DNA of 64,000 nucleotides from an uncultured bacterium (GCA_964498725.1 CAZCHS010000004.1:26876-90875); one strand, 5' to 3'. Positions 15,498-34,704 are shown, counted from the stretch's first letter. Notes: generated from the letters alone by a model not told the origin. Made by a program: numbers and translations.

Positions 15498-15523
15498 AAG
15501 AGGCTGCCTTACGACAGCCTCTT
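15498..15523 (-). terminator. hairpin terminator downstream of the PorV-like gene (may also serve hicA)
   Basis: AAGAGGCTG ... CAGCCTCTT stem. An A-run on the + side gives a T-run on the - strand. Confidence 0.55.
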
Positions 15524-15544: not shown

Positions 15545-16576
15545 CTAGAAACCGACACTAATGGAAAAGTATTGATTCGCATCAAACAATTCCATCGGTC
15601 TGAAAGCATAATCAAAATATACTTTAGTGCCCGCCATGGCCATATTGAGTCCCAAACCATAGCTTAAGTCAAACTGACCATCCTTGTCCCATTCCCAATC
15701 ATCAGGATAGAGATTCTGGATATAACCGGCTCTGAGAAGGAGAAGATTATTAATATTCACTTCCCCACCCAGATTTAATTTGTCCAGTTCCAGTGTATTT
15801 TTACTGTATTGACTAAAAACTGCGACAGATGCCGCATTACTTAATTTTCTGGTATAAGCCACACCCATATTCATACTGGTTGGCAATTCCGCCGAAGCCA
15901 TGTCCAGTTTTGTTTTGCGGGTTGTGGCATTGGGATTTGCAAAAGGTATATTGGAATCAAATTCAATTTCCGGCCCGTCGAATGTCATGTCGGTACCGAT
16001 ATTTTTCATAGTAATTCCAAAATCCAGACCAAAATTTGTCCGGTATTGCAAACCAAAATCAAATCCCATTGCGCTGGCCGACATGTTTCCAATGTTCTCA
16101 CTAATAATTTTAATATTGGAGCCAAAGGAGACTTTATTTGTCATTTTTTTGGAATAGGTTAATCCGGCAGTCAGGTAATCAGGACTAATTTCCTGTCCTG
16201 TACCTTCGGGGGAATTGATTGTCGTTACTTCTATTTTTCCAATATTGAGGGATTGTATACTGACACCGATTATTCCCAGCCGGCCCAGATTGACACCGGT
16301 GGTGATATAGGAGACTTTCATGTCAGCAAAATAATCCAGGTAACTGAAACTGGCCTCTGCCTGCTTTATATATGCCAAACCGGCCGGGTTCCAGTAAATT
16401 GCTTCTGTTCCATCTACCTTTGCAATATCAGCGCAACCCAGGGATACATTTCTGGCCCCCATTGGAATCAATAATTCAGGCGCGGCAGCGGTGCCCAAGC
16501 GGGTTCCGCTGGCAAAAACCACCTGTGTAAATAGTAGTAATAATAAACATATAATTTTAATATCGTTTCTTTTCAT
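15545..16576 (-). CDS. PorV/PorQ-family outer-membrane beta-barrel (T9SS cargo shuttle-like)
   Basis: Signal peptide (LLLLLFTQVVFASG). AAAPELLIPMGARNVSLGCADIAKVDGTEAIYWNPAGLA resembles the PorV/UPF0164 N-terminal motif. Alternating beta-strand pattern and C-terminal ...YFSISVGF. The start is set at MKRNDIK with GGAGG upstream. Confidence 0.6.
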   Translation of the reverse strand: MKRNDIKIICLLLLLFTQVVFASGTRLGTAAAPELLIPMGARNVSLGCADIAKVDGTEAIYWNPAGLAYIKQAEASFSYLDYFADMKVSYITTGVNLGRLGIIGVSIQSLNIGKIEVTTINSPEGTGQEISPDYLTAGLTYSKKMTNKVSFGSNIKIISENIGNMSASAMGFDFGLQYRTNFGLDFGITMKNIGTDMTFDGPEIEFDSNIPFANPNATTRKTKLDMASAELPTSMNMGVAYTRKLSNAASVAVFSQYSKNTLELDKLNLGGEVNINNLLLLRAGYIQNLYPDDWEWDKDGQFDLSYGLGLNMAMAGTKVYFDYAFRPMELFDANQYFSISVGF

Positions 16577-16617
16577 AATTTTTACCTCCATAATTAGGTT
16601 ATCAGAAAAACTGACCA

Positions 16618-19600
16618 TTAGTAGGTATCCAGACGTTCGTTTGGAGCAAAGATCGCGAGTTTGCCGATTTTTTCGCCAACTTTTGGAATATCCACATGAT
16701 AAACATAGATACCACTGGCGACTGGCAACCCATACTCATTGCTCAAATCCCACTGGGTCAGCGTGGTGGTGGGATCGTCTTTTTGGATTTTTTTGATCTG
16801 ATTTCCGGCCAGATCAAAAATTCTGATCGTACATTTTTCAGGCAGGTTCGTAAACTGTACCCAACGCTGGAAAATATTCATTTCACCGGAATGATAGCCG
16901 TAATATGGGTTTGGTACAACTTTGATATTGTTAATATCATCCTTTTTATGGTTGGTGGAATCAGTGGCGGCCTTCGGCGCTTCAAAGGTGTAATAATCAT
17001 TTTCACTATTTGGTTTAGCTGAATTCCATCGGACAACTGTTCCTGGCGCCGGCGGTTTACCCCAAATACCACCTGATCCCGGTGACCAGAGATCATAGTA
17101 CATTGAAAAAACAATCCTGCCAACAGAATGCCCGGAATCCCATAAAGACCCCCAGAAAATATTATTTAAAACATTATCGCCGCCATCGGCTGTGAGTTCT
17201 TCTTCATCATAGGGATAATTACAGATATAGAGACGTTCCCAACCGCTCAGAGCGCCGCCAACATAGGAACCTTCTCTTTCCTGGCTCCAGTACCAATCAT
17301 TGTCATCATCAATAATTCCGGCAATTACCTGTGTTTTTTCTCCGGATGGTGTAATTTTCCATACTCTGAAAGGCAAGCGGCCATTGGTTTTGTGGATTGT
17401 TTCAGCACCACCCAAAGTATCAGCTTCTTTCCAGCCATTGACGAACCAATCGCCATTAGCCGAACCTGCTTCACTGGCCCAGGCATTAAAAATCAACTGA
17501 CCTTCGGTTTCAGGATTTTCGACAAATTCAATAACAATATCATTCGGTGTGGTATTTCCACGCCAATCCCATTGTGTTAGTTGCGTTACCGGATCACCGA
17601 CAGCAGCACCATCGGCAGCAACAATAAATGCCGGCCTCCCCCCCTCATAATGGTCCGGAGCATTTAAACTGGAAATAAGATTGTCATCCATGACTTCATT
17701 CCAGTCACTCGGGCTGACCTGTACAAGTTCAACGATACTTGGGGGTGCGCCAGCCACTTTTACCATCAGACCATCGGTAATATTATAGGCCTCATCATTT
17801 CTTTGGTTGCGCTGATGACTTAACAAAGTATCATTTTCAGTCTGGTCATACAAGTACCATTCTGATTCATTGTTTTCATAAAAACCAACCTTATATTCAT
17901 GGCCGCTTAATTTTAACGGGTCCACAACGAGTGCTGTCATACTTCCCTGGCTTTCCGGTTTTGTTGTATCTTTTCTCATATGAACAACAGGAATAGTATC
18001 ACCAAAGGAGGCATAGGTTCTGATACCCAGACGGCTTTGCGGTGTTACCCTGACAATTGTGGGAGCACTTTCAAGTATTTTCGGCGCACCGTATTCACAA
18101 TAGCCTTCGGCAACCACTCCGAAATAATATTCTTTACCATTCACAAGCATGTTGCCGACATTTCCAACCGTTCCATTTGTGTTTTGTGTAATTCTGATCA
18201 TCCTGTTGCCGGTATAGGGAGATGCATCAGAAGCGTCATCCACCTGCCATTGGTCTATCAATACAGGATCAGCACCACTAGCATCGGAATACTGATATAC
18301 CGAATAGCCAAGAAAATTATAGGTGGAATCTAAAATAACTTTTTCCATATTATCCATAATTACAGTATCGCCATAGGCTTTGGCAACGATCGGGTCAGTT
18401 GAAGAATAAAAAGTTCCGTCTTCATTATATTCAGAGTTTCCGGTCCAGTTCAGAATAATTTCCTGGGATTTTTCACTGTATTCGATTTCCGGTGATTTCG
18501 GATTTTTCGCCAATTTAAAATTAACATCATAAGCCAGTTGTGCCAGACGGTCAACTTCTTTCAATTTCTGAACACTATTTAGATTATCAGTTCCACGAGC
18601 CATAATATATCCGGCAACAATCACTTGTACACCCGGTTCGCCAAAATCAGGAATGCCATTCATATTCAGGTCCCGATTTGGATTATTGGCTTCCCAGTAT
18701 GTCATGTCAAAGGGCCCGGTTGTCATAATAAACCGTCTGTCATCTTCATTGGAATCATTCCATCCGCTACCGGTTATGGGGTCACCACTAAACATAAAAT
18801 TGGCCGGTTCGGCATTCGGGTCAGTGCCAACGCCGCCCTCAGTGATTTTATTGCCGTCACGCCAGATAGCCCGCATATAATTATAGGCGTCCTGCCCGTT
18901 ATCGGGATTGCCGTTTGTGGGATCATCATTGTTATTATAATAAACAAAAGAAGTCATTTTTAACTTTTTCTTGTCATATAATACGGTTCCATCAGGAAGA
19001 ACAACTTCAGCGCCCTCTTCATCAACAATTGGCCCCTGAAAAAAATCAATTCCGGCAGCCGGTGGCGCAGAGCCATAATTCTGATCATCATTATCAGCAT
19101 TATAGCAGTATCCCAGTCCTAATAAGGTATCACAACCAACAAAATCATCAGTGGCATCACCAATGTCAGGATCGGTCCAGATTGTAAAATACGAATCCTT
19201 CCAATCAGTACCGCTCTTATTGGCAATCGTCCATTTGGTGAACATCATATCACCAAGCGCATCAGCCCGGTTGTAAGCCCAAACATATTGCCTGATTTCC
19301 GCATTTAATCTGTTGGTTTTAAACATTGTGTGATTAGCGAGGTCATTCCACACACAAAAGGCGGAAAAATCACCCAGCATCATCGGTTTTCCCTCTTCAT
19401 CAACGGGTGCTCCCTGTTCCACCGGCCAACTGGACCAATCCCCCACATTGGATGGCCTTAAAACATACCACCTGTAATCAGGATCATTGGGATTTGCCGG
19501 TTCATCAGGTGCGATAATTTCACCGGGTTGAAATTCTGTGGCATCATGAATCACACCAGCGATTCTTACTTCACCGTCAACACGGGCACCCAGCCACTGA

Positions 19601-19851
19601 CCGGCGCCAAACATAGGACTTAATCCGGAACCCTTTGGCCATTCCAGTCCCCAATTACTTGCCGGTACATCATGAAACCAGATGCCATTATTACGTAAAA
19701 ATCCATTTAGCCGGTTGGCGTCCATCCAGATGTCACTGGTCATGGCTGTTTTCGCCAAGGGGCCAATTTTTTTATTGTTATTTTTTTCTCCCATCAAAAA
19801 ACTTGATAACAGAAAAACCATTAATAAGGTATATACTATAATTTTTCTCAT
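16618..19851 (-). CDS. 1077-aa secreted protein of unknown function with T9SS-type C-terminal sorting domain
   Basis: Signal peptide without a lipobox. The C-terminal ~95 aa (KVVPNPYYGY...CTIRIFDLAGNQIKKI...WDLSNEYGLPVASGIYVYHVDIP..GKLAIF) fit the T9SS CTD / FlgD-Ig-like pattern. I recognise no catalytic motif in the body. GGAGG RBS. Confidence 0.6.
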   Translation of the reverse strand: MRKIIVYTLLMVFLLSSFLMGEKNNNKKIGPLAKTAMTSDIWMDANRLNGFLRNNGIWFHDVPASNWGLEWPKGSGLSPMFGAGQWLGARVDGEVRIAGVIHDATEFQPGEIIAPDEPANPNDPDYRWYVLRPSNVGDWSSWPVEQGAPVDEEGKPMMLGDFSAFCVWNDLANHTMFKTNRLNAEIRQYVWAYNRADALGDMMFTKWTIANKSGTDWKDSYFTIWTDPDIGDATDDFVGCDTLLGLGYCYNADNDDQNYGSAPPAAGIDFFQGPIVDEEGAEVVLPDGTVLYDKKKLKMTSFVYYNNNDDPTNGNPDNGQDAYNYMRAIWRDGNKITEGGVGTDPNAEPANFMFSGDPITGSGWNDSNEDDRRFIMTTGPFDMTYWEANNPNRDLNMNGIPDFGEPGVQVIVAGYIMARGTDNLNSVQKLKEVDRLAQLAYDVNFKLAKNPKSPEIEYSEKSQEIILNWTGNSEYNEDGTFYSSTDPIVAKAYGDTVIMDNMEKVILDSTYNFLGYSVYQYSDASGADPVLIDQWQVDDASDASPYTGNRMIRITQNTNGTVGNVGNMLVNGKEYYFGVVAEGYCEYGAPKILESAPTIVRVTPQSRLGIRTYASFGDTIPVVHMRKDTTKPESQGSMTALVVDPLKLSGHEYKVGFYENNESEWYLYDQTENDTLLSHQRNQRNDEAYNITDGLMVKVAGAPPSIVELVQVSPSDWNEVMDDNLISSLNAPDHYEGGRPAFIVAADGAAVGDPVTQLTQWDWRGNTTPNDIVIEFVENPETEGQLIFNAWASEAGSANGDWFVNGWKEADTLGGAETIHKTNGRLPFRVWKITPSGEKTQVIAGIIDDDNDWYWSQEREGSYVGGALSGWERLYICNYPYDEEELTADGGDNVLNNIFWGSLWDSGHSVGRIVFSMYYDLWSPGSGGIWGKPPAPGTVVRWNSAKPNSENDYYTFEAPKAATDSTNHKKDDINNIKVVPNPYYGYHSGEMNIFQRWVQFTNLPEKCTIRIFDLAGNQIKKIQKDDPTTTLTQWDLSNEYGLPVASGIYVYHVDIPKVGEKIGKLAIFAPNERLDTY

Positions 19852-19883
19852 AAATTTTCCTCCAATCCAAAATTGAACATTTA

Positions 19884-22800
19884 TTATAATTCCAGACGCA
19901 AGCCAAGTCGAATTTGTCTTGGAGTTGCATAATTACTGTAGTCCCATGCTCTCATTTTGTACTGTTTCTTTTCAACTTCTGTTAGATTATTCCAGTATAC
20001 TTTGCCGGGATTGGTGCCCAGATAGCCGGTACTATTGGGTGTTCCGGTTGTTATGTATACATTTTTCACATTTTCTTTATTCAGCAGGTTCAGAACTGTT
20101 ACATAGGCGGTCATTTTTACAGGTCCGACAGTAAACCGTTTATCAACCTTCAAATCCATTTGCTGCATCCATGGTGTTCTTTCCGCGCCCACAGCTGAAA
20201 GCGGTGTCTCGGAAATGCCTTCATTATCATTCCGGCCGCCAAAAGGCTGTGTATTTGCAATTTTGGCTAAGGTATAGGGATTACCTGAATTGAATGAGAA
20301 CATCATGTTAACACCGGCATTGTTCAGCAAATTAACCGGAGCATCATCAGGGCCATATCGATAATCCAAAACAATGCTACCGCGATGACGCTGTTCAAAG
20401 TCAAGGGGCATTGCAAATTTTGGAAAATTTCCATCTTTGGACCCATCCTGCCAGGCAATATCAAAATTAGAATCAGCATTGGAGCCGGTTCCTTTGGCAA
20501 TTTGAAATTCATAATTTGCATTGATGGACAGATTGTTAAATCTGCGCATGTTAAAAATCACATCAAAACCCTTGATCGTACCAAAATCGCCATTATCCGT
20601 AAAAGCAATTTCAGTCGCGTCAGTCAGATGTGGAAATACCAGGATCAGATCTTCGGTTTCCTTGAAGAAGGTGGTTAACTGCAAGGAAGCATTTTGTCCC
20701 AGCATTTGTTTAAACCCAATTTCATAGGAAGTTGTTTTTGGCGGTCTCAGATTAGGATTGTCAATGGTTGTAAAATAACCGCCACTGGAAACATAAGTGT
20801 TTAGATAAAAGGGACTCAAATACAAATCCCGTAATTGCGGTGCTTGATAGAATATACCATACTGTGTATGAAACACAGTACTTTCAGTGATCGGAAACGA
20901 AAAACCAAATCGCGGACTAATGTAATCATAAGCTTCGGAAGGTTCTGTATCTTCTTTATCAAACTGGCCGTTTCCGCCAAACATGCCACTACCTGGAATG
21001 TAGTTACCATCTTTATCAACTCGCTTGTCAATCTCTTTGAACATCCAGGCATTTGGATCAATCCTGTCATAACGAAAACCAACATTCACAATTATATTTT
21101 CATACTCGATCTTATCCTGAAGATAGCCGCTGATGATGATTGGATGATAAGGTTCCTGTTCATTAAAACCGGAAATTGGATTGCCGGCTTCATCACGAAC
21201 CACGTCATCAAGAAAACTTTTTCCGTCGCCTACTTCTTTGCCGTCAATATCATAGCCATAAAACCGAATATCTGTGGATTGATATTTTTCCAGTTCCGTA
21301 CCATATTCTCTGGCATAGCTTTCCGGTGCCAGGGCACGATACTCTCGTAATGTATGATACTTATATTCAAAACCGGTCTTAAAGGTATGATTTTCATTAT
21401 ACTGATGGGTTAAATCAAAATCAATTGCCCAATAGGTTGTTCTGTTTTTAAAATAATCATTAAAGGGCACACCAGGCGCAAAAAAGTCAGGCTCCAGTGT
21501 TCCATTGAAACGGGTCCCTTCAAAAGTATTTAACCCCCGGTAATATCTTTCATTGTAAAGTTCCTCTAATTCCGGATCACCAACATAGAAAATATTTTGT
21601 TCCGGATAGGGTTGTTCAGCCGCACTACCATATTTTGTCAGATCATCACCAAATTTCCTGTCATAATGTTTTCGCTCAGTATCAAAGTATTTTAATCGAA
21701 AATCATAAAATGTGGTGTTGGAAATTGTATGGGTCAAAGCTGTATTCAATGACAATGTATTGGATGACATTGTGGGAGCGTGGGCCTGATTGAAAAAATA
21801 CTGCCTGTGCATGGCGTCATCATTGAAAGGATCTGAAGAAAATTCACGCACTGTTTTGGCAAACCCGGTTTTCAGAGCCATGTTATCAGTGAATTGTAAT
21901 TTGAATTTTCCATTCCAGGCCCAGACATCATTAAAATTACCGGGAATTCTACCATTAAAATTAAATTTATGAGTACCCAGATCCAATGTATCGCGTTCAG
22001 TATAGGTGATCAACGATGTGTCCATCTGTCCCATCTCATCATTATAAGCAATGCGGATGCTGTCGAATTCATTGTCATAGGTAAACATCTGGTCATAAGT
22101 TCTGGATTCCAGTCGATAAGGGTTTTCAGCCCAGCCGTAAGATGGTGTCCAGTCGGCCTGATATTGTCTTGTACCACTGACAAAGAAAGTGTGGTTCTTA
22201 CCGGGGATAATGGGGCCACTCAAAGTCGCCACGTATTCATTGTGTCCATAAGAATAAGCGCCCAAAATTTTATCATCAGCGCTTAAAAATTCATCGGTGT
22301 CAAAGGACAGGGATGTCTTATACTCTTTAGTACCAACATTGGTTGTCAAGGCGACAATTCCGGACATGGCATCACCATACTCAGCATTGAAACCACCGGT
22401 CTGAACACTCATTTCTTCTATGGCTTCGTTGGGCAGGTAGAGCCGGACAGCACTGTTATAGGGGTCATTCACCAAAACACCGTCAATATATACAGCTGTT
22501 TCTGCTGCGCGGCCGCCACGAACATTCATATCATTGGAGTTAGCCGTTTTGACCACACCGGCTGTGGCGGCGGCAATTTCCTGCATGCCTCTGACAGGAA
22601 GATTTGAAATATCTTCTGCTGTTTTAATCACATTGGTGTTTGTTTCATCTTTCCTGATAATTTTTCTATGGGCAGTAACAAGAACTTCTTCCATATCCAA
22701 AGCGCTTTGTTCCATTTCCAGGTTAATTTCAGTTGTCAAGTCCAATGATACATGAAGATTTTTCATTACGATGGTTTTTTTACCCATATAGGATACTTTC

Positions 22801-23024
22801 AGAGTGTATTCTCCTACCGGCACATTCAGTATCGAATAGTAACCATCCGTGTTGGTCGCGGCACCTGTATTAATGCCATTCCCAGTTACAACAATATTTA
22901 CTCCCGGTAATGGTTCACCGGTTTCTTTATCTGTCACTATTCCTGCGATCTTACCGGTTGTACCGGCAAACAGTACAAAGGGTAGTAAAATGGTTAATAA
23001 CCATAAAATGACGTTTCTTGTCAT
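19884..23024 (-). CDS. TonB-dependent receptor, SusC-sized, with carboxypeptidase-regulatory-like N-terminal domain
   Basis: Signal peptide. GKIAGIVTDKETGEPLPGVNIVVTG..TDGYYSILNVPVGEYTLKVSYMG is a CarboxypepD_reg-like domain. A plug region follows (VLVTA...NVIKTAEDISNLPVRGMQEI), then a long beta-barrel-like body. AAGGAGG RBS. Confidence 0.8.
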   Translation of the reverse strand: MTRNVILWLLTILLPFVLFAGTTGKIAGIVTDKETGEPLPGVNIVVTGNGINTGAATNTDGYYSILNVPVGEYTLKVSYMGKKTIVMKNLHVSLDLTTEINLEMEQSALDMEEVLVTAHRKIIRKDETNTNVIKTAEDISNLPVRGMQEIAAATAGVVKTANSNDMNVRGGRAAETAVYIDGVLVNDPYNSAVRLYLPNEAIEEMSVQTGGFNAEYGDAMSGIVALTTNVGTKEYKTSLSFDTDEFLSADDKILGAYSYGHNEYVATLSGPIIPGKNHTFFVSGTRQYQADWTPSYGWAENPYRLESRTYDQMFTYDNEFDSIRIAYNDEMGQMDTSLITYTERDTLDLGTHKFNFNGRIPGNFNDVWAWNGKFKLQFTDNMALKTGFAKTVREFSSDPFNDDAMHRQYFFNQAHAPTMSSNTLSLNTALTHTISNTTFYDFRLKYFDTERKHYDRKFGDDLTKYGSAAEQPYPEQNIFYVGDPELEELYNERYYRGLNTFEGTRFNGTLEPDFFAPGVPFNDYFKNRTTYWAIDFDLTHQYNENHTFKTGFEYKYHTLREYRALAPESYAREYGTELEKYQSTDIRFYGYDIDGKEVGDGKSFLDDVVRDEAGNPISGFNEQEPYHPIIISGYLQDKIEYENIIVNVGFRYDRIDPNAWMFKEIDKRVDKDGNYIPGSGMFGGNGQFDKEDTEPSEAYDYISPRFGFSFPITESTVFHTQYGIFYQAPQLRDLYLSPFYLNTYVSSGGYFTTIDNPNLRPPKTTSYEIGFKQMLGQNASLQLTTFFKETEDLILVFPHLTDATEIAFTDNGDFGTIKGFDVIFNMRRFNNLSINANYEFQIAKGTGSNADSNFDIAWQDGSKDGNFPKFAMPLDFEQRHRGSIVLDYRYGPDDAPVNLLNNAGVNMMFSFNSGNPYTLAKIANTQPFGGRNDNEGISETPLSAVGAERTPWMQQMDLKVDKRFTVGPVKMTAYVTVLNLLNKENVKNVYITTGTPNSTGYLGTNPGKVYWNNLTEVEKKQYKMRAWDYSNYATPRQIRLGLRLEL

Positions 23025-23115
23025 AGTTCCTCCTTTTTTAAACCTATTTCATTATTTTTCGATTAATGACTAAGAGAAGTATGTATCCCCCTTCCACTAA
23101 TCCCAGGTCTACATT

Positions 23116-23131
23116 TTCAATACATGTACCA
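23116..23131 (-). promoter_or_regulatory. candidate sigma54 (-24/-12) promoter of the TonB-receptor operon
   Basis: The minus strand reads TGGTAC-ATGTA-TTGAA (consensus TGGCAC-N5-TTGCW), about 90 nt upstream of ATG 23024. The GG and TTG spacing is exact. The -12 C is replaced by A. Confidence 0.35.
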
Positions 23132-23434
23132 AAGGGAAAATATTCTTCATTTCACATTAAAATATCATAAAACAAATATCCCAAATTCATGAAAATAATG
23201 ATATTACCTCTTAATTTCTGATATTTAGGAAATACTAAAAAAAAGCCTTCAAATCGGATATTTAAGAAGTTTACTATATTTAGGATATAGCAACTCCGGT
23301 TTATTGGTAATATTATTTTTTTATCATTATCAGGTTTTTTCATTAATCTGTGAAAGAGATAATTGAAAAAGATGGTCAGCTGAATTTTGGAAACAAGTGT
23401 TATTGACTGAAAAAAGTCCATAATCCGGGGCACT

Positions 23435-23494
23435 AAAAAGAAAAAGGAAAGCTTTTATAATAGCTTTCCTTTTTCTAAGGATTAGTATGGTACC
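23435..23494 (-). ncRNA. candidate small RNA, copy 1 (conserved 5' GUACCAUACUAAUCCU + intrinsic terminator)
   Basis: An orphan terminator hairpin (GGAAAGCT/AGCTTTCC, 23446-23469) with a T-tract on the minus strand and no gene to terminate. It lies downstream of a sigma54-like box. A 28-nt block is conserved with copy 2 at 1 mismatch, while the terminator stems differ in sequence but both still pair. Ends are estimated, not mapped. Confidence 0.4.
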
Positions 23495-23504
23495 CTATTT
23501 TTAA

Positions 23505-23520
23505 GTCAATATAAATGCCA
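23505..23520 (-). promoter_or_regulatory. candidate sigma54 promoter of sRNA copy 1
   Basis: The minus strand reads TGGCAT-TTATA-TTGAC. The spacing to the conserved GTACC block fits a start about 12 nt downstream. Confidence 0.4.
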
Positions 23521-23612
23521 AACACTTCTAATAACATCAATTAATTCCTTTTTTCTGGTAAATAACTCGTCATGTTTTTATAATTACCGATACCTGGTGA
23601 ATATTCAGGAAT

Positions 23613-23628
23613 TGGTGTTGAAATTGTC
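23613..23628 (+). promoter_or_regulatory. weak sigma54-like box upstream of the lipoprotein gene
   Basis: TGGTGT-TGAAA-TTGTC on the + strand, about 40 nt before ATG 23670. Weaker match in the -24 half. Confidence 0.2.
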
Positions 23629-23669
23629 AAAAAAATTTAAAAAATAATATAATTTCAGGAGGAATATTT

Positions 23670-24239
23670 ATGAAAAATTTATTAAAAATATCATTTGTCC
23701 TTTCGTTGCTTTTTATGTTCAATTGCACCGGAACCATTAAGCCTCTGGGCTATTTTTCCCTCTACCCTTATTCAAATCCCGCTGCAAATCAAAATCATAC
23801 CACTTTAAATATACTTTTAGGCGATGATGTCAAAAATGATTTCTCAGTAAAATCAACCGGCATAAAAGAAATGCAGGTAAGGGATTTTCGTAAATCTGTG
23901 GAATCCAGTCTTATCAATACCTTTCAAGAAAACTATAAAAATATACGGGTGTGTGAAACAATATCTGGGCAGGGATTAACATTAACCGTCTACCGGATCA
24001 GACCTTTCTGGAAACTTGAAGATATATTCACCCCTTCAGAAACATTAAAGGAACGATATGTTGTCTCTGCCGGCTTTCAGATTGACGCCGCATTATTTCT
24101 TAATGGCAAAAAAATCAAAAGTGTTGTTGACACGATTTACAGTGATGAGAAAATGACAAATACTCACCAGGCCCATAATATTTTTAAAAATGGTTTTGAA
24201 AAAGTCTGTGAAACAATTAACCACCGTCTATTTATTTAA
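23670..24239 (+). CDS. hypothetical lipoprotein (189 aa)
   Basis: Signal peptide with lipobox (LLFMFNCTG). AGGAGG RBS. No recognisable domain. Confidence 0.6.
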   Translation: MKNLLKISFVLSLLFMFNCTGTIKPLGYFSLYPYSNPAANQNHTTLNILLGDDVKNDFSVKSTGIKEMQVRDFRKSVESSLINTFQENYKNIRVCETISGQGLTLTVYRIRPFWKLEDIFTPSETLKERYVVSAGFQIDAALFLNGKKIKSVVDTIYSDEKMTNTHQAHNIFKNGFEKVCETINHRLFI

Positions 24240-24280
24240 ATAGTTAAACTAATCCTGCAAAATTCATAACTAATCAGGTT

Positions 24281-24345
24281 AAAAAAAAGAAAAAGGAAGT
24301 CGCTGGCGCGGTCTTCCTTTTTCTCAGGATTAGTATGGTACGTGT
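24281..24345 (-). ncRNA. candidate small RNA, copy 2
   Basis: Same architecture as copy 1: sigma54-like box, GTACCATACTAATCCTGAGAAAAAGGAAG, a GC-rich hairpin (24295-24317) and a T-tract. It begins about 40 nt downstream of the stop of the sigma54 activator gene, on the same strand. Ends are estimated. Confidence 0.4.
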
Positions 24346-24355
24346 ATATTTTGTA

Positions 24356-24371
24356 TTCAATAAAAATGCCA
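24356..24371 (-). promoter_or_regulatory. candidate sigma54 promoter of sRNA copy 2
   Basis: The minus strand reads TGGCAT-TTTTA-TTGAA. Confidence 0.4.
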
Positions 24372-24411
24372 AAATTTCAGATTATGGCTGTTTTTAAATA
24401 ACTTCTTCTCT

Positions 24412-27400
24412 TTAATTGTTAATATTCAGTTTTTTCATTCGGCTAAACAAGGTTTTTGGATTAATTTTAAGAATTTCTGCCGCACCATTTTCTCCGCTAA
24501 CCTTTCCCTTGGTATATTCTAATATTTTTTCAATGTGACGCCTCTGAAGTTCCTCAAGAGTCAAGAGTGAATCCCCTGTATCGGATCGCCGCTCTTTTTT
24601 CAGGGATTCGAACCACTCCCCCAGTTCCAGAATATCCGCACTACTGACAATAATAGCGCGCTGAATAATATTTTCCAGTTCCCGAATATTCCCCGGCCAA
24701 CGATATTTCATCAGTTTATTGATTGTACTTTGTGGAATTTTTGAGATCGTTTTATTGAACTTTTCACAATACTTATTTACAAAATGTTTTACCAGTAAGG
24801 GGATATCTTCCATCCTTTCCCTGAGAGGCGGTAGATTGATCGGAAAAACATTGAGCCGATAAAATAAATCTTCACGAAACTGTCCGGTTTTCACTTCTTC
24901 TTCCAGGTTTCTGTTGGTCGCTGCGATAATCCGCGTGTTGGTTTGCAGGGTGATGGAATTGCCCAGCCGCTCAAACTCACCATTTTGCAGCACCCGCAAT
25001 AATTTTTGTTGAACTTTGATGGGCAGTTCACCGATTTCGTCAAGAAATATAGTGCCGCCATTAGCCAGTTCAAACCGGCCGATCTTCCGCTTGTTAGCAC
25101 CGGTAAACGCGCCTTTCTCATGTCCGAACAATTCCGATTCAATCAGATTGGGTGGCAGGGAAGCACAATCTACTTTTATAAAGCATTCTTTCCGTCTGGA
25201 ACTACTTTTATGGATCGCATGGGCAAGCAAATCCTTTCCGGTTCCGGATTCTCCTAAAATGAGTATAGTTGGATCAGCCCCGGAAGCAATTTCAATCTGC
25301 TGTAAAATATTTTGCATTTTATTGCTATTCGTGACAATTTCTTTATAATGAATATGATTATTTATTTCTATTTCATGTTTCAAAAAGGTATTTTCATTTT
25401 CTAATTTTATTTTCAGATTTTCCACTTCCAAAAGCGCATGATTTAAACGCTCATTGATCTCATTTTTTTCCTTGATTTGTTTTTGTAATACCAGTTTGCT
25501 CTTTCGAACTTTTCGTGTTCTGTATTGAATAATCAAATATATTGCGCCTGTCGACACCAGTATCAACAGTATTTTAAACCACAGGGTTTTCCAAAAAGGA
25601 TATCTGATTTGAAAATTGATCACTTTCTCCTGTTCATTCCAAACATGGTCAAAATTCGCGGCTTTTAAATGAAAGGTATAGTCCCCGGGTGCTAAATGTG
25701 AATAGGTCAGGTATTTGTAATTTTTGCAATAATTCCAATCCTCATCCACCCCCTCCAGGAAATAAGCCAATTGATTATTTTCCGGAGATACATAATGAAG
25801 ACCGCGAATATCAAAGGAAACAACATCCTGATCATATGAAAATTCAAGCGGGCTTTCAACAGACTGATCGACTATTTTATTAAATACATATAATCCTTTC
25901 ACCTGGGGTATGGCCGGCTTGGGATTTTTTCGAATATTTGAGGGATGAAAATAGGTAAAGCCATTCTTGGTTCCCATTAATATATAACCATTCCGCATCA
26001 GGAAACTGGCGCGCGGCAGAAACTGGCAATTTTGCAATCCGTCCTTGTTAAAATAATTATTGATCTGGCCATCATTGACAGACAACCGGGCAATGCCGTC
26101 GGGAGTGGATATCCACAGTTGACCTTTTCGGGTCGGAACAATAGCCAATATACAATTGTTTATCATGCCATTGGTTTCCAGATAATGACTAAAACGGCCA
26201 CTACTGTCCAGTTTATTCAACCCGCCATTTTCCGTGCCCACCCATATATGGCCATCAAAATCCTGCGTGACAAAATTAATTTTATCGTCACTGATTGAAT
26301 ATCTGTCATCGAAATCATTGCGGTAAGAGACAAATTCCGGTTCCATAGAATTGATCTCTGTACCCGGCAATAGGGAGAGCCCGTATTCCGCTGTACCGAT
26401 CAAAAGATCATTTTCTGTGGTAAAATGCAGCGACGTGATATGTTCGCCACTGATTGCCGACATGAAATTTTCATCGGGAAAGTAATGTAAAAAATTATCA
26501 TATTGTGAACGATAGCGATTTAACCCCTTTTGTGTGCCTACCCAAATATCCCCTTTATTCAAGGGATCACCTACAATTGACGTGATAAAATTGGAACTGA
26601 TACTTGAGAGTTCACGGGCAGAATATTGATAGTGTTTTACTCCCTGTTGCGGAGTTATCTTGTACAGTCCGTTGTTCGTGCCGCACCACAAATTATTTTC
26701 GCCGTCACGATACATGGCTGTGATCACCTGATAATTAAGTTCTTCTGTACCGGGCAGGCGGTAACTACTGTTATCAGAAAAATCATAGACGAATATTCCA
26801 TGATGGGTGCCGATCAGAATAGAATTTGAATTATGCCCGGCAAAGGAGAAAATAACATTGCTCATCAATCCTTTGTCAATTGTATGATGGGAAAAATTCC
26901 GGGCCGGGTAATATTTATAAAGCCCCTTCCCCTTCAGGCTGATCCACAAAACACCGCTGCGATCATAATAGAGTGCATGAATACCAGTGGAATTGTGGGT
27001 TTCAATATTGATTTCATAAGTATGAATTTTAATATTTTCTAAATTTTCCACCGGACTGATTTTGTATATTTTGTAGCCACTGCCTAACCACAGATTACCA
27101 AATTCATCCCTGACCATGGCATTTTTTTGGATATTGAATATTTTCTCTGAAAAATTTTCCTGATCTATTTTAATCAATTCTGTTTTTGCTTCATCGTACA
27201 AATAAAATCCGGCCTTTGTTGAGATTAAAAATAAGTTCTCTTTAACCGGAAAAATAAAATTCACATCAATGGTTTCCAGAAAATGCTCAAGTACCAGTAT
27301 TTTTTCGTTTACAGGAGAAAAATTAAGTTTATAAAATCCGTTATCACCGGTTGCTGCCAGCAGGGTATTATCGTCAATGATCTCTATATCGGTGATATGC

Positions 27401-27882
27401 TGTGAAATTCCGGCAGGAATAATAGCGGTACTGTCAGCATTTAAATTCCAGTAAAATAATCCATCGTCTGTCCCAAACCATATCTGGTAGTTGTCATGGT
27501 CAATCGCGGAAATATTTGCGCTGCCGGTGACGGCTTCCATGAAAAATGAAAATTTTCCGGAGCGAAGGTCAAGAGAGTTTAGGCCTCCAAACTTTGTTCC
27601 AACCAGAAGTACTGAACTATCGGTCTCACAGATATCGGTTATATGATCATCGGAAATACTGTTTTCATTATAGGGGTCAATTTTGTAACTATCATAATCC
27701 TGGCCGTCGTACTTGTACAGTCCGTCCGTGGTACCAAACCAGATATAACCTTGATTATCCTGGTGTATGACATTAATTGATTTATGAAAATCCAATGATA
27801 TTAAGCTAAGTTTATCTTCCTGTCCCAGGAGACAGGTTGACAGAAGCAGACTAATGATAAAAAAATTTATTTTATTTCTCAT
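24412..27882 (-). CDS. membrane-anchored sigma54-dependent transcriptional activator with periplasmic beta-propeller / Y_Y_Y sensor
   Basis: Signal/anchor segment, then about 700 aa of two-component-regulator-propeller-like repeats (recurrent ..W.GT..GL..). A Y_Y_Y-like domain (LAYFLEGVDEDWNY...LAPGDYTFHLKA) and a TM helix (LWFKILLILVSTGAIYLIIQY) follow. Then come a coiled coil and an AAA+ domain with Walker A GESGTGKD, GAFTGA and Walker B FLDEIGE. The C-terminus is a Fis-type HTH. The start is taken at MRNKINFF (ATG 27882); the ORF track's extended start is TTG. Confidence 0.85.
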   Translation of the reverse strand: MRNKINFFIISLLLSTCLLGQEDKLSLISLDFHKSINVIHQDNQGYIWFGTTDGLYKYDGQDYDSYKIDPYNENSISDDHITDICETDSSVLLVGTKFGGLNSLDLRSGKFSFFMEAVTGSANISAIDHDNYQIWFGTDDGLFYWNLNADSTAIIPAGISQHITDIEIIDDNTLLAATGDNGFYKLNFSPVNEKILVLEHFLETIDVNFIFPVKENLFLISTKAGFYLYDEAKTELIKIDQENFSEKIFNIQKNAMVRDEFGNLWLGSGYKIYKISPVENLENIKIHTYEINIETHNSTGIHALYYDRSGVLWISLKGKGLYKYYPARNFSHHTIDKGLMSNVIFSFAGHNSNSILIGTHHGIFVYDFSDNSSYRLPGTEELNYQVITAMYRDGENNLWCGTNNGLYKITPQQGVKHYQYSARELSSISSNFITSIVGDPLNKGDIWVGTQKGLNRYRSQYDNFLHYFPDENFMSAISGEHITSLHFTTENDLLIGTAEYGLSLLPGTEINSMEPEFVSYRNDFDDRYSISDDKINFVTQDFDGHIWVGTENGGLNKLDSSGRFSHYLETNGMINNCILAIVPTRKGQLWISTPDGIARLSVNDGQINNYFNKDGLQNCQFLPRASFLMRNGYILMGTKNGFTYFHPSNIRKNPKPAIPQVKGLYVFNKIVDQSVESPLEFSYDQDVVSFDIRGLHYVSPENNQLAYFLEGVDEDWNYCKNYKYLTYSHLAPGDYTFHLKAANFDHVWNEQEKVINFQIRYPFWKTLWFKILLILVSTGAIYLIIQYRTRKVRKSKLVLQKQIKEKNEINERLNHALLEVENLKIKLENENTFLKHEIEINNHIHYKEIVTNSNKMQNILQQIEIASGADPTILILGESGTGKDLLAHAIHKSSSRRKECFIKVDCASLPPNLIESELFGHEKGAFTGANKRKIGRFELANGGTIFLDEIGELPIKVQQKLLRVLQNGEFERLGNSITLQTNTRIIAATNRNLEEEVKTGQFREDLFYRLNVFPINLPPLRERMEDIPLLVKHFVNKYCEKFNKTISKIPQSTINKLMKYRWPGNIRELENIIQRAIIVSSADILELGEWFESLKKERRSDTGDSLLTLEELQRRHIEKILEYTKGKVSGENGAAEILKINPKTLFSRMKKLNINN

Positions 27883-28204
27883 CCCTTTTACCAAATTATA
27901 TTTTCGTTATCTAAGACCGGCGATTTTTAAAAATAGTTGTCGTAAAAATTAAATTTATTCAGCAAACCGGTATAATAAAATATTTAATAATTTTACTGAT
28001 ATTCAGGTAAAAGTAATGAAGCGGAACATGCAGGAATATAGTCGGAAAAGTCAGGAATATAATTCTTCATAGTCTACAGATTAGAATAATGGAGAACAAA
28101 AAATTTATAGAAGTAATAAACTAACTTTTTTTCTTATTATGAAACATTAATATTTTGTAATCGTATGAAAGTTGTTAATTAAAATTAAAAAAGGAGAAAT
28201 TTTC

Positions 28205-28732
28205 ATGTTAAAACATTTAGGCAGTGAACGGAGAATTGAATTGGTTTTAGTGGTGGCGCTTTTTTTTCTGTTACCACAAATTGCTTTAAGCCAGCAACCA
28301 AACCAAATGCCTAATCAAATGCAAGGGCAAGAGCAAGCTAAGTCCATTGAAGTATCTGACGAAGAAGTCACAACATTTGTTAAAGCCCAAAATAAACTTC
28401 TGGATGTTCAGGAAAAATCCACTGAAAAGATGATGACCACTATTGAAGATGAAGGTCTTGATGTGGAGGTATATAACAAAATCGCACGGCAGGCCCAAAG
28501 GGCTAATTCTGCAGAAGATATTAATGCCACTGAAACAGAGTTACAAAAATTCCAAAATGCCTCAACTAAAGTTTCGAAAATTCAGCAATCAATGCAGCAA
28601 GATCAGGAAGAAGTACTGAAAAAAATGGATATGTCACCAAAACGCTACCAGGAAATTGAGATGGCGGCAATGCAAGATATGAAATTACAGGAAAGAATTA
28701 TTAATAAAATGGATAAAGATAAAGAAAAATAA
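28205..28732 (+). CDS. secreted DUF4168-like protein
   Basis: Signal peptide. VSDEEVTTFVKAQNKLLDVQEKSTEKMMTTIEDEGLDVEVYNKI resembles the DUF4168 repeat. AAGGAG RBS before ATG 28205. Confidence 0.5.
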   Translation: MLKHLGSERRIELVLVVALFFLLPQIALSQQPNQMPNQMQGQEQAKSIEVSDEEVTTFVKAQNKLLDVQEKSTEKMMTTIEDEGLDVEVYNKIARQAQRANSAEDINATETELQKFQNASTKVSKIQQSMQQDQEEVLKKMDMSPKRYQEIEMAAMQDMKLQERIINKMDKDKEK

Positions 28733-28828
28733 TCCTAATCATTCATTGAATATCCGGGCTTTTTACGGATAGAATAACATTCAGGTTAAACCTTGTTATT
28801 CCGGTCTTAGCCAGGTAAATGTTTATTC

Positions 28829-28866
28829 AACAACGGTTCCGTAAATTCGGAACCGTTGTTATTTTT
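28829..28866 (+). terminator. rho-independent terminator
   Basis: A 13-bp perfect stem AACAACGGTTCCG / CGGAACCGTTGTT followed by ATTTTT. Confidence 0.75.
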
Positions 28867-28969
28867 AGTATTAAAAAAATTCTATGATATGAAAAATGTA
28901 TATCTGTTTGAAGCAGCCTTAATATTAAATGCAGGGGCTAACTCATGAATTCGCCCATCAACCAATGCC

Positions 28970-29497
28970 TTAGAAAATAAACAATCCAATCAGACCACAA
29001 GATAAAATCACAAAAATCGGATGTAATTTACCTTCAAATATTATCAGCACGGCCAGAGCGGCAACTGCCAGAAACAAATCTATCCGGTTTTCCAGGACTT
29101 CGGAACCGTAAGACCAGGTGGCATAAAAAATTAAGCTCAACACTCCCACTTGCAAACCTTCCCGAAACTTGATTATGTGTTCATTGGAACCGACCTTCTC
29201 AACAAGGGGAGCAATGATTATGAGAATCGTAATTGATGGAAGAACGACAGCAATTGTAGCTATTATAGCACCCAAAATACCGTTTATGCGTAATCCCACA
29301 AAAGTTGCGGCATTGACTGCAATTGGTCCCGGGGTCATTTGTGCAATTGCCAGAAGCGAGGCCATTTCTTTAAAAACCAGCCAGTTTTGCTGAGTCACTA
29401 TTTCATGCTGGATAAGAGGAATCGTCACCAATCCGCCGCCATAAGCGCCAATGCCAATTAATGTAAAACTTTTAAATATCTGTATTAATGTTCGCAA
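28970..29497 (-). CDS. chromate transporter family protein, half-size (short-chain ChrA)
   Basis: GGGLVTIPLIQHEIV..W....F....AIAQMTPGPIAVN is the ChrA domain pattern. Paired with the adjacent half-size paralog. Confidence 0.75.
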   Translation of the reverse strand: MRTLIQIFKSFTLIGIGAYGGGLVTIPLIQHEIVTQQNWLVFKEMASLLAIAQMTPGPIAVNAATFVGLRINGILGAIIATIAVVLPSITILIIIAPLVEKVGSNEHIIKFREGLQVGVLSLIFYATWSYGSEVLENRIDLFLAVAALAVLIIFEGKLHPIFVILSCGLIGLFIF

Positions 29498-29528
29498 TCT
29501 GTCTCCGTGGATTATTCAAAATATATAT

Positions 29529-30110
29529 TTATTCGGGGTGTTTACATAAAAAATATCCCAGCACCCCACTGCCAATTATGCTCCAAATAGGATGAAACTT
29601 CAACCCCAGAACAATTACAACTCCAACGATAAAGACAATTATATTTTGCCAATATCGCAAATGTTTTCTGCCAAAAACATATACGGTAAATGCCAGCTGG
29701 GCTGAAACTGCTACAGCGCAGCCGTGTAAAAAAGCTGCAACTCTAGGATAATTAAAGTAGGGCAAAGCAACAAAATATATCAATAAAATTATAAAAAAAG
29801 AGGGAAGCACAGTTCCCAGCATCGCCATCATTGCACCGGATTTTCCGCGTAAGCGTCTTCCCTGCAAATAAGCAAAATTCATGGCTATGGCTCCGGGAAC
29901 AAGAGTCGCCGTTGACATTTCCTTAATAAATTCCCTGTCACTGATCCATTTTCGCTTAAGTACCAATTCATGCCGCATAACAGTTGCCATGGCTAGGCCA
30001 CCACCTAAAGTAAACATACCGATTCTAAAATAAGTTAAAAAAATTAAACCGAATGGCACTGAATTTTTTCTATTATGTTTTTCTCCCTCACTATTGCTGT
30101 CATTTAACAT
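29529..30110 (-). CDS. chromate transporter family protein, half-size (short-chain ChrA)
   Basis: FRIGMFTLGGGLAMATVMRHELV..KWISDREF......TLVPGAIAMN is the ChrA domain pattern. Confidence 0.75.
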   Translation of the reverse strand: MLNDSNSEGEKHNRKNSVPFGLIFLTYFRIGMFTLGGGLAMATVMRHELVLKRKWISDREFIKEMSTATLVPGAIAMNFAYLQGRRLRGKSGAMMAMLGTVLPSFFIILLIYFVALPYFNYPRVAAFLHGCAVAVSAQLAFTVYVFGRKHLRYWQNIIVFIVGVVIVLGLKFHPIWSIIGSGVLGYFLCKHPE

Positions 30111-30240
30111 TGGATCGCTATTTTTTCCCTTTCCAAACTTTATATTTGATAATTAAAAACATGCAAAATTACTCAAAATAATTATAAAATGAAACCATAA
30201 TAAGAAATTGTCTTTTTTCTATCCAACAATTATTCATCCA

Positions 30241-30346
30241 TTCAGGTTAATCCCGATAGTTTCCACTGGAACATCCGGCCTCTGGCGGAAGGAAACGTAT
30301 CGGCGCGGAGCGGGCATTATTCATATTTTTATGAATAATGCAGGTT
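30241..30346 (+). repeat. hairpin repeat family 2, copy C
   Basis: TTCAGGTTAATCCCGATAGTTTCCACTGGAACAT...GGAAACGTATCGGCGCGGAGCGGG + CATTATTCATATTTTTATGAATAATGCAGG. It abuts the marC stop codon. ORF 30208..30408 is an artefact of this element. Confidence 0.75.
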
Positions 30347-30953
30347 ATAGACCCCACCAGTCTTTGATTCCGTTCATCAACATCTGTATTGCTACAGTGC
30401 CGAGGTAAAGAGAAGTCACTTTACCCATGACACTGACATACCGGTCAATGACACGGGCGTTTTTAGGCAGGACAATATCATGGATGATCTTCAGTAGAAT
30501 AAGCACACCAATGGTAAATGTGACAGCAATAATGATCGCCAGAGAGGCCTTTAAAACACCCAGGTTTTTACCCGCTAACACGCTGACATTCAATGAGCCG
30601 GGGCCAATCAAAATCGGCATGGCAATAGCGCCTACTTTATCCTGGGAATCACCTCTGAGGCTGGAAATAGCGGCATTTCCATTGAACATAAAATTGATAC
30701 TGATCAGTAAAAATACAATCCCTCCGAAAATCTGAAAGGATTCAAACTTGGCATGGATAAAACTCTGAAAAATTATTTCACCGGTAATGGCAAAAGCAAT
30801 GAACACTATACTACTGATCATACCGGCCATTCCGAGGATACCGGCAAACTCCTTCAGGGTAATGGTTTTAATGATTTCCACCAGGTAAATCACCAGTAAA
30901 AATGGATTTAAAAGCATTATCATTAAAATAATCATTTGAAAAAAACTATCCAT
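30345..30953 (-). CDS. MarC-family (UPF0056/NAAT) integral membrane protein
   Basis: Six hydrophobic segments. The IAMPILIGPGSL block is typical of MarC-family proteins. Confidence 0.7.
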   Translation of the reverse strand: MDSFFQMIILMIMLLNPFLLVIYLVEIIKTITLKEFAGILGMAGMISSIVFIAFAITGEIIFQSFIHAKFESFQIFGGIVFLLISINFMFNGNAAISSLRGDSQDKVGAIAMPILIGPGSLNVSVLAGKNLGVLKASLAIIIAVTFTIGVLILLKIIHDIVLPKNARVIDRYVSVMGKVTSLYLGTVAIQMLMNGIKDWWGL

Positions 30954-33674: not shown

Positions 33675-33676
33675 TG

Positions 33677-34702: not shown

Positions 34703-34704
34703 AC

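Follow-up and report, generated by a model that had tools for sequence, protein, structure and literature searches.

A widespread gene trio of a TonB-dependent receptor, a T9SS-type protein and a PorV-like barrel in FCB-group bacteria

We found a trio of adjacent genes in a 64-kb stretch of DNA from an uncultured bacterium (GCA_964498725.1 CAZCHS010000004.1:26876-90875), hereafter called the window. The trio encodes, in this order, a TonB-dependent receptor (TBDR), a 1077-amino acid (aa) protein that we call the large protein, and a barrel of the PorV/PorQ family. It is real and widespread, and we found no description of it in the literature that could be searched. All of its parts are of known kinds; their combination and the family of the large protein are new. 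We put the chances at about even that the trio forms a surface complex for TonB-dependent uptake, in which a subunit delivered by type IX secretion (the T9SS) is mounted on a dedicated PorV paralogue, and which is here controlled by sigma-54 and small RNAs.

The window had previously been examined by a model that was given the DNA alone (the sequence-only reading), which singled out the trio together with a nearby gene for a sigma-54 activator. That reading knew of no characterized system of this composition, and we likewise found no paper on the trio, on its counterpart MROS_0284-0286 in Melioribacter roseus or on GWxTD proteins. NCBI has a protein with 100% identity to the activator, encoded in a metagenome-assembled genome (MAG) of Fidelibacterota. 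Fidelibacterota is a phylum of the Fibrobacteres-Chlorobi-Bacteroidetes (FCB) group; its former names are Marinimicrobia or SAR406 (title of PMC11652737).

Gene content and operon signals

The trio and the activator gene all lie on the minus strand, and their positions in our list of open reading frames (ORFs) agree with those of the earlier reading. These genes and the terminator that follows them are:

24412 to 27882, minus strand: activator gene (Pfam and NCBIfam matches, translation)
19884 to 23024, minus strand: TBDR gene, 1046 aa (Pfam and NCBIfam matches, sequence read)
16618 to 19851, minus strand: large-protein gene, 1077 aa (ORF list, sequence read)
15545 to 16576, minus strand: PorV/PorQ-family barrel gene, 343 aa, starting MKRND (family scans, sequence read)
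15498 to 15523, minus strand: intrinsic terminator closing the operon (11-bp stem with 6 G-C pairs, then a T-run)

The trio had been called an apparent operon on account of gaps of 32 and 41 nt, and these values are exact. A GGAGG Shine-Dalgarno (SD) sequence precedes the ATG at both gaps, 8 nt upstream of it in the case of the barrel's MKRND start. A terminator scan of the two gaps found no intrinsic terminator, and the strong closing terminator (15523-15498) sits 22 nt past the last stop codon of the trio. A putative promoter upstream of the TBDR gene, described below, also agrees with an operon.

Conservation of the trio

Synteny was assessed by tblastn of the window proteins against loci from a genome scan, which yielded 78 distinct loci with homologues of the large protein. 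The loci come from Neomarinimicrobiota, Calditrichia, KSB1, Ignavibacteria/Melioribacteraceae, Rhodothermales and other Bacteroidota bins, and also from Zixiibacteriota, Eiseniibacteriota and GN15. The order TBDR, large protein, PorV on one strand is present in 48 of the 53 loci that have room on both sides; these intact loci belong to Fidelibacterota (the window's phylum), Calditrichia, KSB1, Ignavibacteria, Rhodothermales, Zixiibacteriota and Eiseniibacteriota. A TBDR gene is directly upstream of the large-protein gene in 54 of 61 loci with room upstream, a PorV gene is directly downstream in 60 of 68 loci with room downstream, and the gaps are mostly 20-150 nt. Because this order is kept in 48 of 53 related loci, it goes beyond chance, and because the synteny spans at least eight phylum-level FCB lineages, the three genes behave as one conserved module.

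Several MAGs contain two or three trios (e.g., L008/L015/L027 and L009/L010), and some loci have an extra copy of the large protein. The paralogous trios within a MAG, together with a hypervariable segment in the large protein, make the module resemble substrate-specific transporter families. The trio also occurs in a cultured organism, M. roseus, in which MROS_0285 is the large protein.

The large protein

The large protein begins with an N-terminal signal peptide, which can be read directly from the sequence. Its regions are:

18487 to 19740, minus strand: N-terminal beta-supersandwich domain (N-domain), residues 38-455 (AlphaFold2, Foldseek, alignment)
17707 to 18486, minus strand: two beta-sandwich (Ig/FN3-like) domains, residues 456-715 (full AlphaFold2 model)
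17017 to 17706, minus strand: hypervariable segment, residues 716-945 (low identity, low pLDDT)
16621 to 16926, minus strand: family-specific T9SS-like C-terminal beta-sandwich domain (CTD), residues 976-1077 (NCBIfam, AlphaFold2, Foldseek)

The sequence-only reading recognized no domain in this protein other than the CTD, and database searches agree. No Pfam family matches at E ≤ 0.01, and the N-domain is not covered by any Pfam or NCBIfam model. At E ≤ 1, Pfam gives only weak CTD-type matches over 33 members of the family, and a profile search of PDB sequences gives no matches. The 478 homologues that were scored are all unnamed or labelled by NCBI as "T9SS type A sorting domain-containing". 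When sequences are clustered at 50% identity, a profile of the N-domain matches the representatives of 8,272 clusters at E ≤ 1e-3 and of 3,651 at E ≤ 1e-30. These counts support the assignment of the large protein, on its sequence, to a large unnamed family.

Conservation is uneven along the protein. The CTD has a mean pairwise identity of 65%, the highest of any region, followed by the N-domain (56%), the two Ig-like domains (42-43%) and the segment at 716-945 (25%), whose length is 197-276 aa in homologues. The N-domain contains an invariant acidic cluster, DPDxGDxxDDxVGxD (D227-x-D229-x-G-x3-D235-D236-x4-D241), and Asp, Asn, His, Arg, Glu and Gln are among the residues that do not vary.

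An AlphaFold2 model of all 1077 residues (pLDDT 80.5) is confident at residues 40-715 and in the C-terminal sandwich, and poor at 720-940. With this model, Foldseek searches of the PDB returned only multi-Ig or CTD-driven matches (TM score ≤ 0.17), of which the top one was PorZ (5m11). Since these matches were unconvincing, the N-domain was modelled alone (residues 38-455; pLDDT 88.9, pTM 0.91). It weakly matches the N-domains of glycoside hydrolases of families GH116, GH94, GH63, GH92 and GH65 (TM score ~0.35, E ~1e-4, probability up to 1.0). The N-domain may therefore be a galactose-mutarotase-like supersandwich of the kind found in glycosidases, although the match is weak. In line with the earlier reading, no well-known family is matched confidently by fold, and no catalytic domain was detected by PDB, Foldseek or Pfam searches.

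The PorV-like barrel and the C-terminal domain

The barrel scores 163.9 bits against NF033709, the NCBIfam model of the PorV/PorQ family (cut-off 90), and falls below the cut-offs of the PorV, PorQ and PorV2 equivalogs. It is of the 14-strand type and matches F. johnsoniae PorV (PDB 6h3i_F, E 1e-8). These scores support the earlier proposal of a dedicated PorV-like paralogue.

The CTD region of the large protein (residues 968-1066) weakly matches the C-terminal regions of PorZ (NF052228, E 6e-7) and PorU (E 1.5e-4), which are its sole database matches. Neither PorU nor PorZ loses its CTD, and each remains attached to its barrel, PorU to PorV and PorZ to PorQ; cognate PorV-like barrels have been suggested to shield CTDs from cleavage (T9SS review PMC10202324).

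The CTD and the barrel also covary. A PorV gene is the neighbour in 58 of 61 loci whose large protein has the family CTD, versus none of the four loci without it (Fisher p 5e-5), a correlation that rests on about two independent events. None of these four (L055, L076, L079 and L034) has a TBDR neighbour either. Three of them, L055, L076 and L079, end in a type I dockerin, which scores above the Pfam cut-off, and have no T9SS tail. The fourth is L034; a protein from the same MAG, P0114, combines a dockerin with a generic Por_Secre_tail. Given the covariation and the precedent of PorZ and PorU, the large protein and the barrel look like a new cognate pair of cargo and barrel. The existence of dockerin variants further argues that the N-domain is a free-standing extracellular functional unit. 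The first 950 residues as a whole have the look of such an independent unit, to which anchors of different kinds can be fitted. The homologues with a replaced CTD are located at 21-2984 in L055, 9878-12928 in L076 and 9992-12949 in L079, and include proteins P0098 and P0114.

The TonB-dependent receptor

The TBDR matches the Pfam families CarbopepD_reg_2 (E 6e-21), Plug (2e-10) and the TonB_dep_Rec barrel (2e-22). Its parts are a signal peptide, a CarboxypepD_reg N-terminal extension, a TonB-box-like sequence (EEVLVTA), a plug and a barrel of the 22-strand type. The carboxypeptidase-regulatory-like N-domain had been recognized in the sequence-only reading, and it stands. The likeness to SusC that was also proposed does not: in the NCBIfam scan, the 1046-aa protein does not match TIGR04056 (the SusC/RagA family) at E ≤ 0.01, only generic TBDR domains, and an identity as SusC was rejected on this ground. 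Instead, the set of CarboxypepD_reg extension, plug and barrel is that of the Oar subclass, whose architecture has been described together with experiments in which an Oar-type TonB-dependent transporter is required for protein secretion (PMC6434023). A sequence search of the PDB with the TBDR gave no matches. One locus, L001, has an ExbB-ExbD-TonB cluster 4 kb upstream.

The activator and sigma-54-type sites

The activator consists, in order, of a signal or transmembrane segment, periplasmic Reg_prop beta-propellers with a Y_Y_Y domain, one transmembrane helix, a coiled-coil linker, an AAA+ domain with the GAFTGA motif, and HTH_8. The Sigma54_activat match has an E value of 3e-70, HTH_8 is present, and GAFTGA can be read directly in the translation. 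Judging by these domains, the protein is a sigma-54 activator, as the earlier reading held, and one of a one-component membrane type.

The promoter pattern TGGYAYN5TTGM has three exact matches on both strands of the 64 kb (1.56 expected). All three are on the minus strand within the 1.4-kb space between the activator and TBDR genes. One precedes the TBDR gene, and the other two belong to the small-RNA-like units described below. Upstream of the TBDR gene are also two sites that resemble an upstream activating sequence (UAS):

23117 to 23131, minus strand: -24/-12 promoter (sigma-54-type) for the trio, TGGTACATGTATTGA, preceding the TBDR ATG by 93 nt
23216 to 23231, minus strand: UAS-like palindrome TTCCTAAATATCAGAA, with 2 mismatches, preceding the TBDR promoter's -24 element by 100 nt
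23253 to 23268, minus strand: degenerate copy of the UAS-like palindrome TTCTGAAATATCAGAA, with 3 mismatches (pattern match)

The trio promoter is conserved in the related loci L003 and L004, at -107 and -110. Perfect copies of the 16-bp palindrome TTCTGAAATATCAGAA occur at equivalent positions in L004, which is a 77% relative, and in L203. In these two loci the palindrome is about 153 nt (to 154) upstream of the small-RNA promoters, and a site of the same type is about 100 nt upstream of the TBDR promoter in the window and in L004 (101 nt in L004, 6616 to 6717). L004 has 12 matches to the palindrome, versus 0.49 expected. We regard TTCTGAAATATCAGAA, from its recurrence and placement, as a candidate enhancer site of the activator. 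Copies are found at 960-975, 1659-1674 and 6553-6631 in L004 and at 14277-14292 in L203.

L004 also has a fourth promoter-like site, with a palindrome, ahead of a SusC/SusD-like pair located between two small-RNA units. Since this pair shares the promoter/UAS island of the trio, the island fits a nutrient-uptake regulon. L203 encodes a 60% orthologue of the activator and keeps a small-RNA unit, with no trio beside them.

Across trio loci, a sigma-54-like motif precedes the TBDR gene in about 7 of 54, versus none on the reverse strand. The wiring looks sigma-54-type in the promoter sequences, and sigma-54 control looks specific to the Fidelibacterota lineage of the window. Thus, of the claim that these genes are wired to sigma-54, the part that concerns the window's lineage holds (all three promoter matches in the intergenic space, UAS-like palindromes), and its extension to the module in general does not. 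Similarly, the expected adjacency across FCB genomes is seen for the trio, but not for the activator. The propeller sensor was also considered as a conserved partner of the trio and was rejected, as it neighbours the trio in two further loci, about the number expected by chance (among 93 neighbouring genes).

Distant activators that likewise join a propeller/Y_Y_Y sensor to a sigma-54 output (L204 8869 and 13832; L205 7998) lie beside canonical TGGCAC-N5-TTGC promoters, which precede genes for HSP20, thioredoxin and DJ-1/PfpI. These neighbours hint that the propeller-sigma54 fusion, a rare one, can serve stress regulons.

Small-RNA-like units

The intergenic space contains two small-RNA-like units, and the TBDR leader contains a conserved island:

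24281 to 24371, minus strand: unit A, with promoter TGGCATTTTTATTGA (24371-24357), seed GTACCATACTAATCCT (24341-24326), and terminator hairpin with U-run
23435 to 23520, minus strand: unit B, with promoter TGGCATTTATATTGA (23520-23506), seed (23493-23478) and terminator stem (23476-23439)
23088 to 23105, minus strand: 5′-leader island [AG]GGATTAGTGNAAGGGGG, conserved in the window, L003 and L004, and partly complementary to the seed

Units A and B are duplicates with 81% identity, and would each give a small RNA of about 65 nt. In each, a -24/-12-like promoter is followed by some 25 nt of spacer, then by the invariant seed GTACCATACTAATCC, and finally by a strong hairpin and its U-run. Their minimum free energies are -20.4 kcal/mol (z -6.5) for unit A and -22.7 (z -4.9) for unit B. 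Relatives carry two units in L004 (1110-1205, 6175-6272) and one in L203 (14431-14530). Among the five distinct copies in three genomes, the promoter and 15-nt seed are invariant, while the loop and spacer vary. Based on promoter, unpaired seed, terminator and conservation, units A and B look like candidate trans-acting small RNAs. Because L203 keeps both the activator and a small-RNA unit without an adjacent trio, these two appear to be the conserved pair.

An Rfam search of the intergenic region found nothing near gathering scores. A metagenome scan with the 15-nt seed returned at least 120 stretches, which were chance matches outside any promoter or terminator context; no new copies or perfect targets were among the matches listed.

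In five other loci of the Fidelibacterota type (L008, L009, L017, L026 and L031), the seed is antisense to the trio TBDR around its SD-AUG, and the duplexes have energies between -20 and -26 kcal/mol. Over all loci, mean duplex energies are -10.7 at TBDR starts, -7.8 at large-protein starts and -7.2 at PorV starts. With the seed in the form GUACCAUACUAAUCC, a paralogous trio TBDR with a AGGAUUAGUAUGGUAC start region would fit the target class. In the window itself, the seed reaches only -14.5 kcal/mol with the TBDR-leader island, a value that is within background and no outlier, and pairing of the small RNAs with the local TBDR leader is at most suggestive.

Apart from the antisense strand of the small-RNA genes themselves, the strongest seed-complementary sites in the window are 49183-49202 (+) and 63879-63899 (+), at -25 and -23 kcal/mol, and neither is at a gene start: the former is inside an ORF that matches no family (48830-50164), and the latter is near the end of the window. 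A further seed-complementary site, CAGGATTGGGTATGGTATCTG (-26 kcal/mol), is directly past the activator stop codon in L004 (160-215), about 30 nt upstream of a 250-aa ORF that matches no family. A 257-aa ORF is similarly placed after the activator of L203.

Other genes in and around the trio loci

A 189-aa ORF with no family assignment occupies the interval between the two small-RNA units, on the other strand (23670-24239, +). With its signal peptide and a Cys close to position 20, it might encode a lipoprotein. It is conserved only in a 96% relative, and in L004 the same space is filled by the SusC/SusD-like pair. Further away, the window encodes a 902-aa protein (30966-33674, minus strand) with a weak match to MXAN_6640-type HExxH metalloproteases, whose L203 orthologue has matches to a FlgD_ig/CHU_C-type (T9SS-like) tail. 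Upstream of L203's activator orthologue, the block that runs from 30966 to 41197 in the window is retained in the same order, and this neighbourhood of L203 lacks only the genes for MarC, a chromate transporter and DUF4168 (28172-30953 in the window).

Regulators upstream of the trio vary by lineage. Five loci have tandem LytS-type kinases, L048 has an NtrC-type regulator, and L023 and L036 have a propeller/Y_Y_Y histidine kinase with a LuxR-type response regulator. In loci of the Ignavibacteria/Bacteroidota type (L040, L041, L045, L064, L070, L073, L080, L081 and L202), a DUF4397 protein directly upstream and a GWxTD protein directly downstream are encoded on the same strand as the trio. As these two genes bracket the trio, the module may have five genes in such loci.

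Comparison with known systems

The trio shares several properties with SusC/SusD polysaccharide utilization loci (PULs) that are controlled by hybrid two-component systems. It has a TBDR that is about 1000 aa long and carries a CarboxypepD_reg extension, a putative surface partner encoded next to it, and paralogous expansion. A periplasmic propeller/Y_Y_Y sensor is encoded near the trio in the window's lineage, and the L004 trio is co-located with a true SusC/SusD-like pair. However, the trio receptor is not SusC, its partner is a 1077-aa T9SS-type protein rather than a SusD lipoprotein, and the trio has an additional PorV-family barrel and no carbohydrate-active enzymes (CAZymes). The output of the window's regulator is a sigma-54 AAA+ domain, not the histidine kinase, response regulator and AraC domains of hybrid two-component systems. 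In Pfam searches, the gene downstream of the TBDR did not match SusD_RagB, and the SusC/SusD-like pair is found only in L004, as separate genes upstream of the trio. CAZyme families were absent among the scanned window ORFs and among the recurrent neighbours in 48 loci. The window locus is not a canonical PUL. Consequently, the PUL-like layout proposed by the sequence-only reading finds support in the regulatory island of L004, and none in CAZyme or SusD genes at the window locus; its suggestion that a T9SS-sorted protein replaces SusD survives as an analogy only.

A second comparison is to T9SS proteins that are paired with a barrel: PorZ with PorQ and PorU with PorV in the attachment complex, and cargo with type-B CTDs that has PorP/SprF barrels adjacent to it. 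As in these cases, the CTD of the trio cargo is presumably retained, and, as for PorZ and PorU, a cognate PorV-family barrel is encoded. By contrast, the trio cargo has neither the propellers of PorZ nor the peptidase domain of PorU, and the barrel differs from PorV, PorQ and PorV2 in being below the equivalog cut-offs, in an operon with a TBDR and present in many copies per genome.

The same logic of three parts, often encoded by adjacent genes, is also known from TbpB-TbpA-Slam systems (DUF560, type XI secretion; see PMC8406197): a TonB receptor is combined with a co-receptor, a surface lipoprotein, and with an outer-membrane barrel dedicated to displaying it. The families involved are unrelated to those of the trio: the large protein has no lipobox, and the barrel is of the PorV/FadL type, not DUF560. 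Moreover, Slam systems belong to Proteobacteria, whereas the trio belongs to FCB phyla. The Oar-PopC system of Myxococcus resembles the trio in the Oar-subclass domain set of the receptor and offers a precedent for outward transport, but PopC has no CTD and no PorV-like partner, and the genes are organized differently.

For the regulatory part, the closest parallels are the LuxO-sigma54-Qrr circuit of Vibrio and OmrA/OmrB, which are duplicated enterobacterial small RNAs that repress TonB receptors. Shared elements are an enhancer-binding protein gene beside duplicated putative RNAs (about 65 nt each), a promoter of the -24/-12 type, a terminator, and a conserved, unpaired seed that is antisense to the SD/AUG of TonB receptors. 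However, no relationship shows in sequence or in Rfam, the organisms are of another phylum, and here the sensor is a membrane one-component propeller protein.

Proposed function and alternatives

We propose that the large protein would be exported first by Sec and then by the T9SS. It would be held at the surface, because its unusually conserved CTD would stay uncleaved on its own PorV/PorQ paralogue, on the model of PorZ on PorQ and PorU on PorV. Positioned beside or over the TBDR, it could act as a subunit that captures or processes the ligand, with the supersandwich and Ig-like stalk as the constant part and the hypervariable segment providing specificity. An oligomer would then be passed to the TBDR for import powered by TonB; a glycan is the most likely candidate, and a peptide is a less likely one. 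The operon would be transcribed from the sigma-54-type promoter, and the adjacent propeller/Y_Y_Y protein is its likely activator, via the TTCTGAAATATCAGAA-like site. The same activator may also drive the two small RNAs, which may act on the start regions or leaders of mRNAs for trio-type receptors.

Several observations weigh against this proposal. The N-domain fold match (TM score 0.35) reaches only a non-catalytic type of domain, and Por_Secre_tail matches the CTD of the large protein at E 0.033 and 14.9 bits, versus a Pfam cut-off of 27. Neither rpoN nor T9SS core genes (sprA/sov, porKLMN) were found within the 64-kb window, and the -12 element of the trio promoter TGGTACATGTATTGA is TTGA, where TTGC is canonical. 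No CAZyme, peptidase or inner-membrane transporter is consistently linked to the trio, whose neighbours are heterogeneous (LytS-type kinases in 9 cases, DUF4397 in 8, GWxTD in 11, and tig-clpP), and the M. roseus trio sits among lipopolysaccharide (LPS) and housekeeping genes.

Under a different explanation, the trio is a self-contained unit for export and display: the Oar-type TBDR would be the translocon for the large protein, the barrel would anchor the CTD, and the large protein would have a job of its own (as adhesin, enzyme or surface layer) that is unrelated to import. The Oar-type domain set of the receptor, in place of that of SusC, and the experimental role of such a transporter in protein secretion (PMC6434023) agree with this idea, as do the strict linkage of the three genes, a CTD that is atypical of generic T9SS cargo, and the occurrence of the trio in Zixiibacteriota and Eiseniibacteriota, phyla in which we have not confirmed a full T9SS. 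Yet variants with a dockerin or a generic CTD occur without any TBDR, so export does not need one. NCBI names the homologues as T9SS type A sorting domain proteins, and the Oar-PopC genes are organized differently, with PopC lacking a CTD. To our knowledge, PorV-family proteins are partners of the T9SS only. We therefore judge the export unit to be improbable. Its broadest form, an autonomous TonB-powered export and display machine that borrows T9SS parts without the SprA translocon and has spread across FCB phyla, seems quite improbable.

The gene neighbourhoods raise another explanation, namely that the trio is a constitutive envelope or housekeeping module with a role in outer-membrane biogenesis, LPS-linked functions or surface architecture, and that the sigma-54 wiring is secondary and tied to envelope stress. 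In M. roseus, a thioredoxin gene is upstream, and genes for a GWxTD protein, lipid A acyltransferase, heptosyltransferase, an M23 peptidase and ATP synthase are downstream. Five loci have tig-clpP upstream of the trio, and a GWxTD gene directly follows it in 11 surveyed loci in addition to M. roseus. The stress-related genes beside the distant propeller-sigma54 activators also point in this direction, and the BAM complex of Bacteroidota provides a case in which a surface protein is held on a FadL/PorV-like barrel (PMC12578637). A housekeeping role is at odds with the several paralogous trios per genome, each with a hypervariable segment in its large protein, with regulators that differ between lineages, and with the dockerin variants. 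In addition, the L004 trio shares its regulatory island with a SusC/SusD pair, and among the named hits, no model Bacteroidota genus showed the module. Overall, a housekeeping module seems a poor prospect.

A variant of the uptake proposal, rather than a competitor to it, makes the large protein a member of a new enzyme family, for example a Ca-dependent one that cleaves glycans or other polymers. Tethered beside the receptor, it would cut a polymer at the cell surface, in a role like that of SusG, instead of serving as a passive binder or lid. The N-domain is strongly conserved (56% across phyla) with its invariant acidic cluster, and there are dockerin-bearing forms, dockerins being typical of extracellular degradative enzymes. 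Nevertheless, no catalytic domain is matched, and supersandwich domains are normally accessory in glycosidases, which makes an enzyme unlikely.

Implications

TonB-dependent uptake in Bacteroidota and their relatives is understood almost entirely through SusC/SusD. If the trio is an uptake complex, it would represent a second, widely conserved way to give a TonB receptor a surface partner. A T9SS-type domain apparently delivers this partner, which a PorV paralogue of its own would hold in place; its conserved domain counts thousands of members, yet neither Pfam nor NCBIfam has a family for it. The lineages concerned, such as Fidelibacterota/SAR406, Ignavibacteria, Calditrichia, KSB1 and Zixiibacteriota, are abundant and poorly studied.

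If this interpretation is true, the idea of a cognate PorV-like barrel would extend from the T9SS attachment complex to nutrient acquisition. It would also define a new domain family, to which MROS_0284-0286 of M. roseus provide a cultured entry point. Finally, the circuit of activator, UAS and small RNAs is a candidate sigma-54 regulon outside Proteobacteria, whose small RNAs may be aimed at the mRNAs of TonB receptors.

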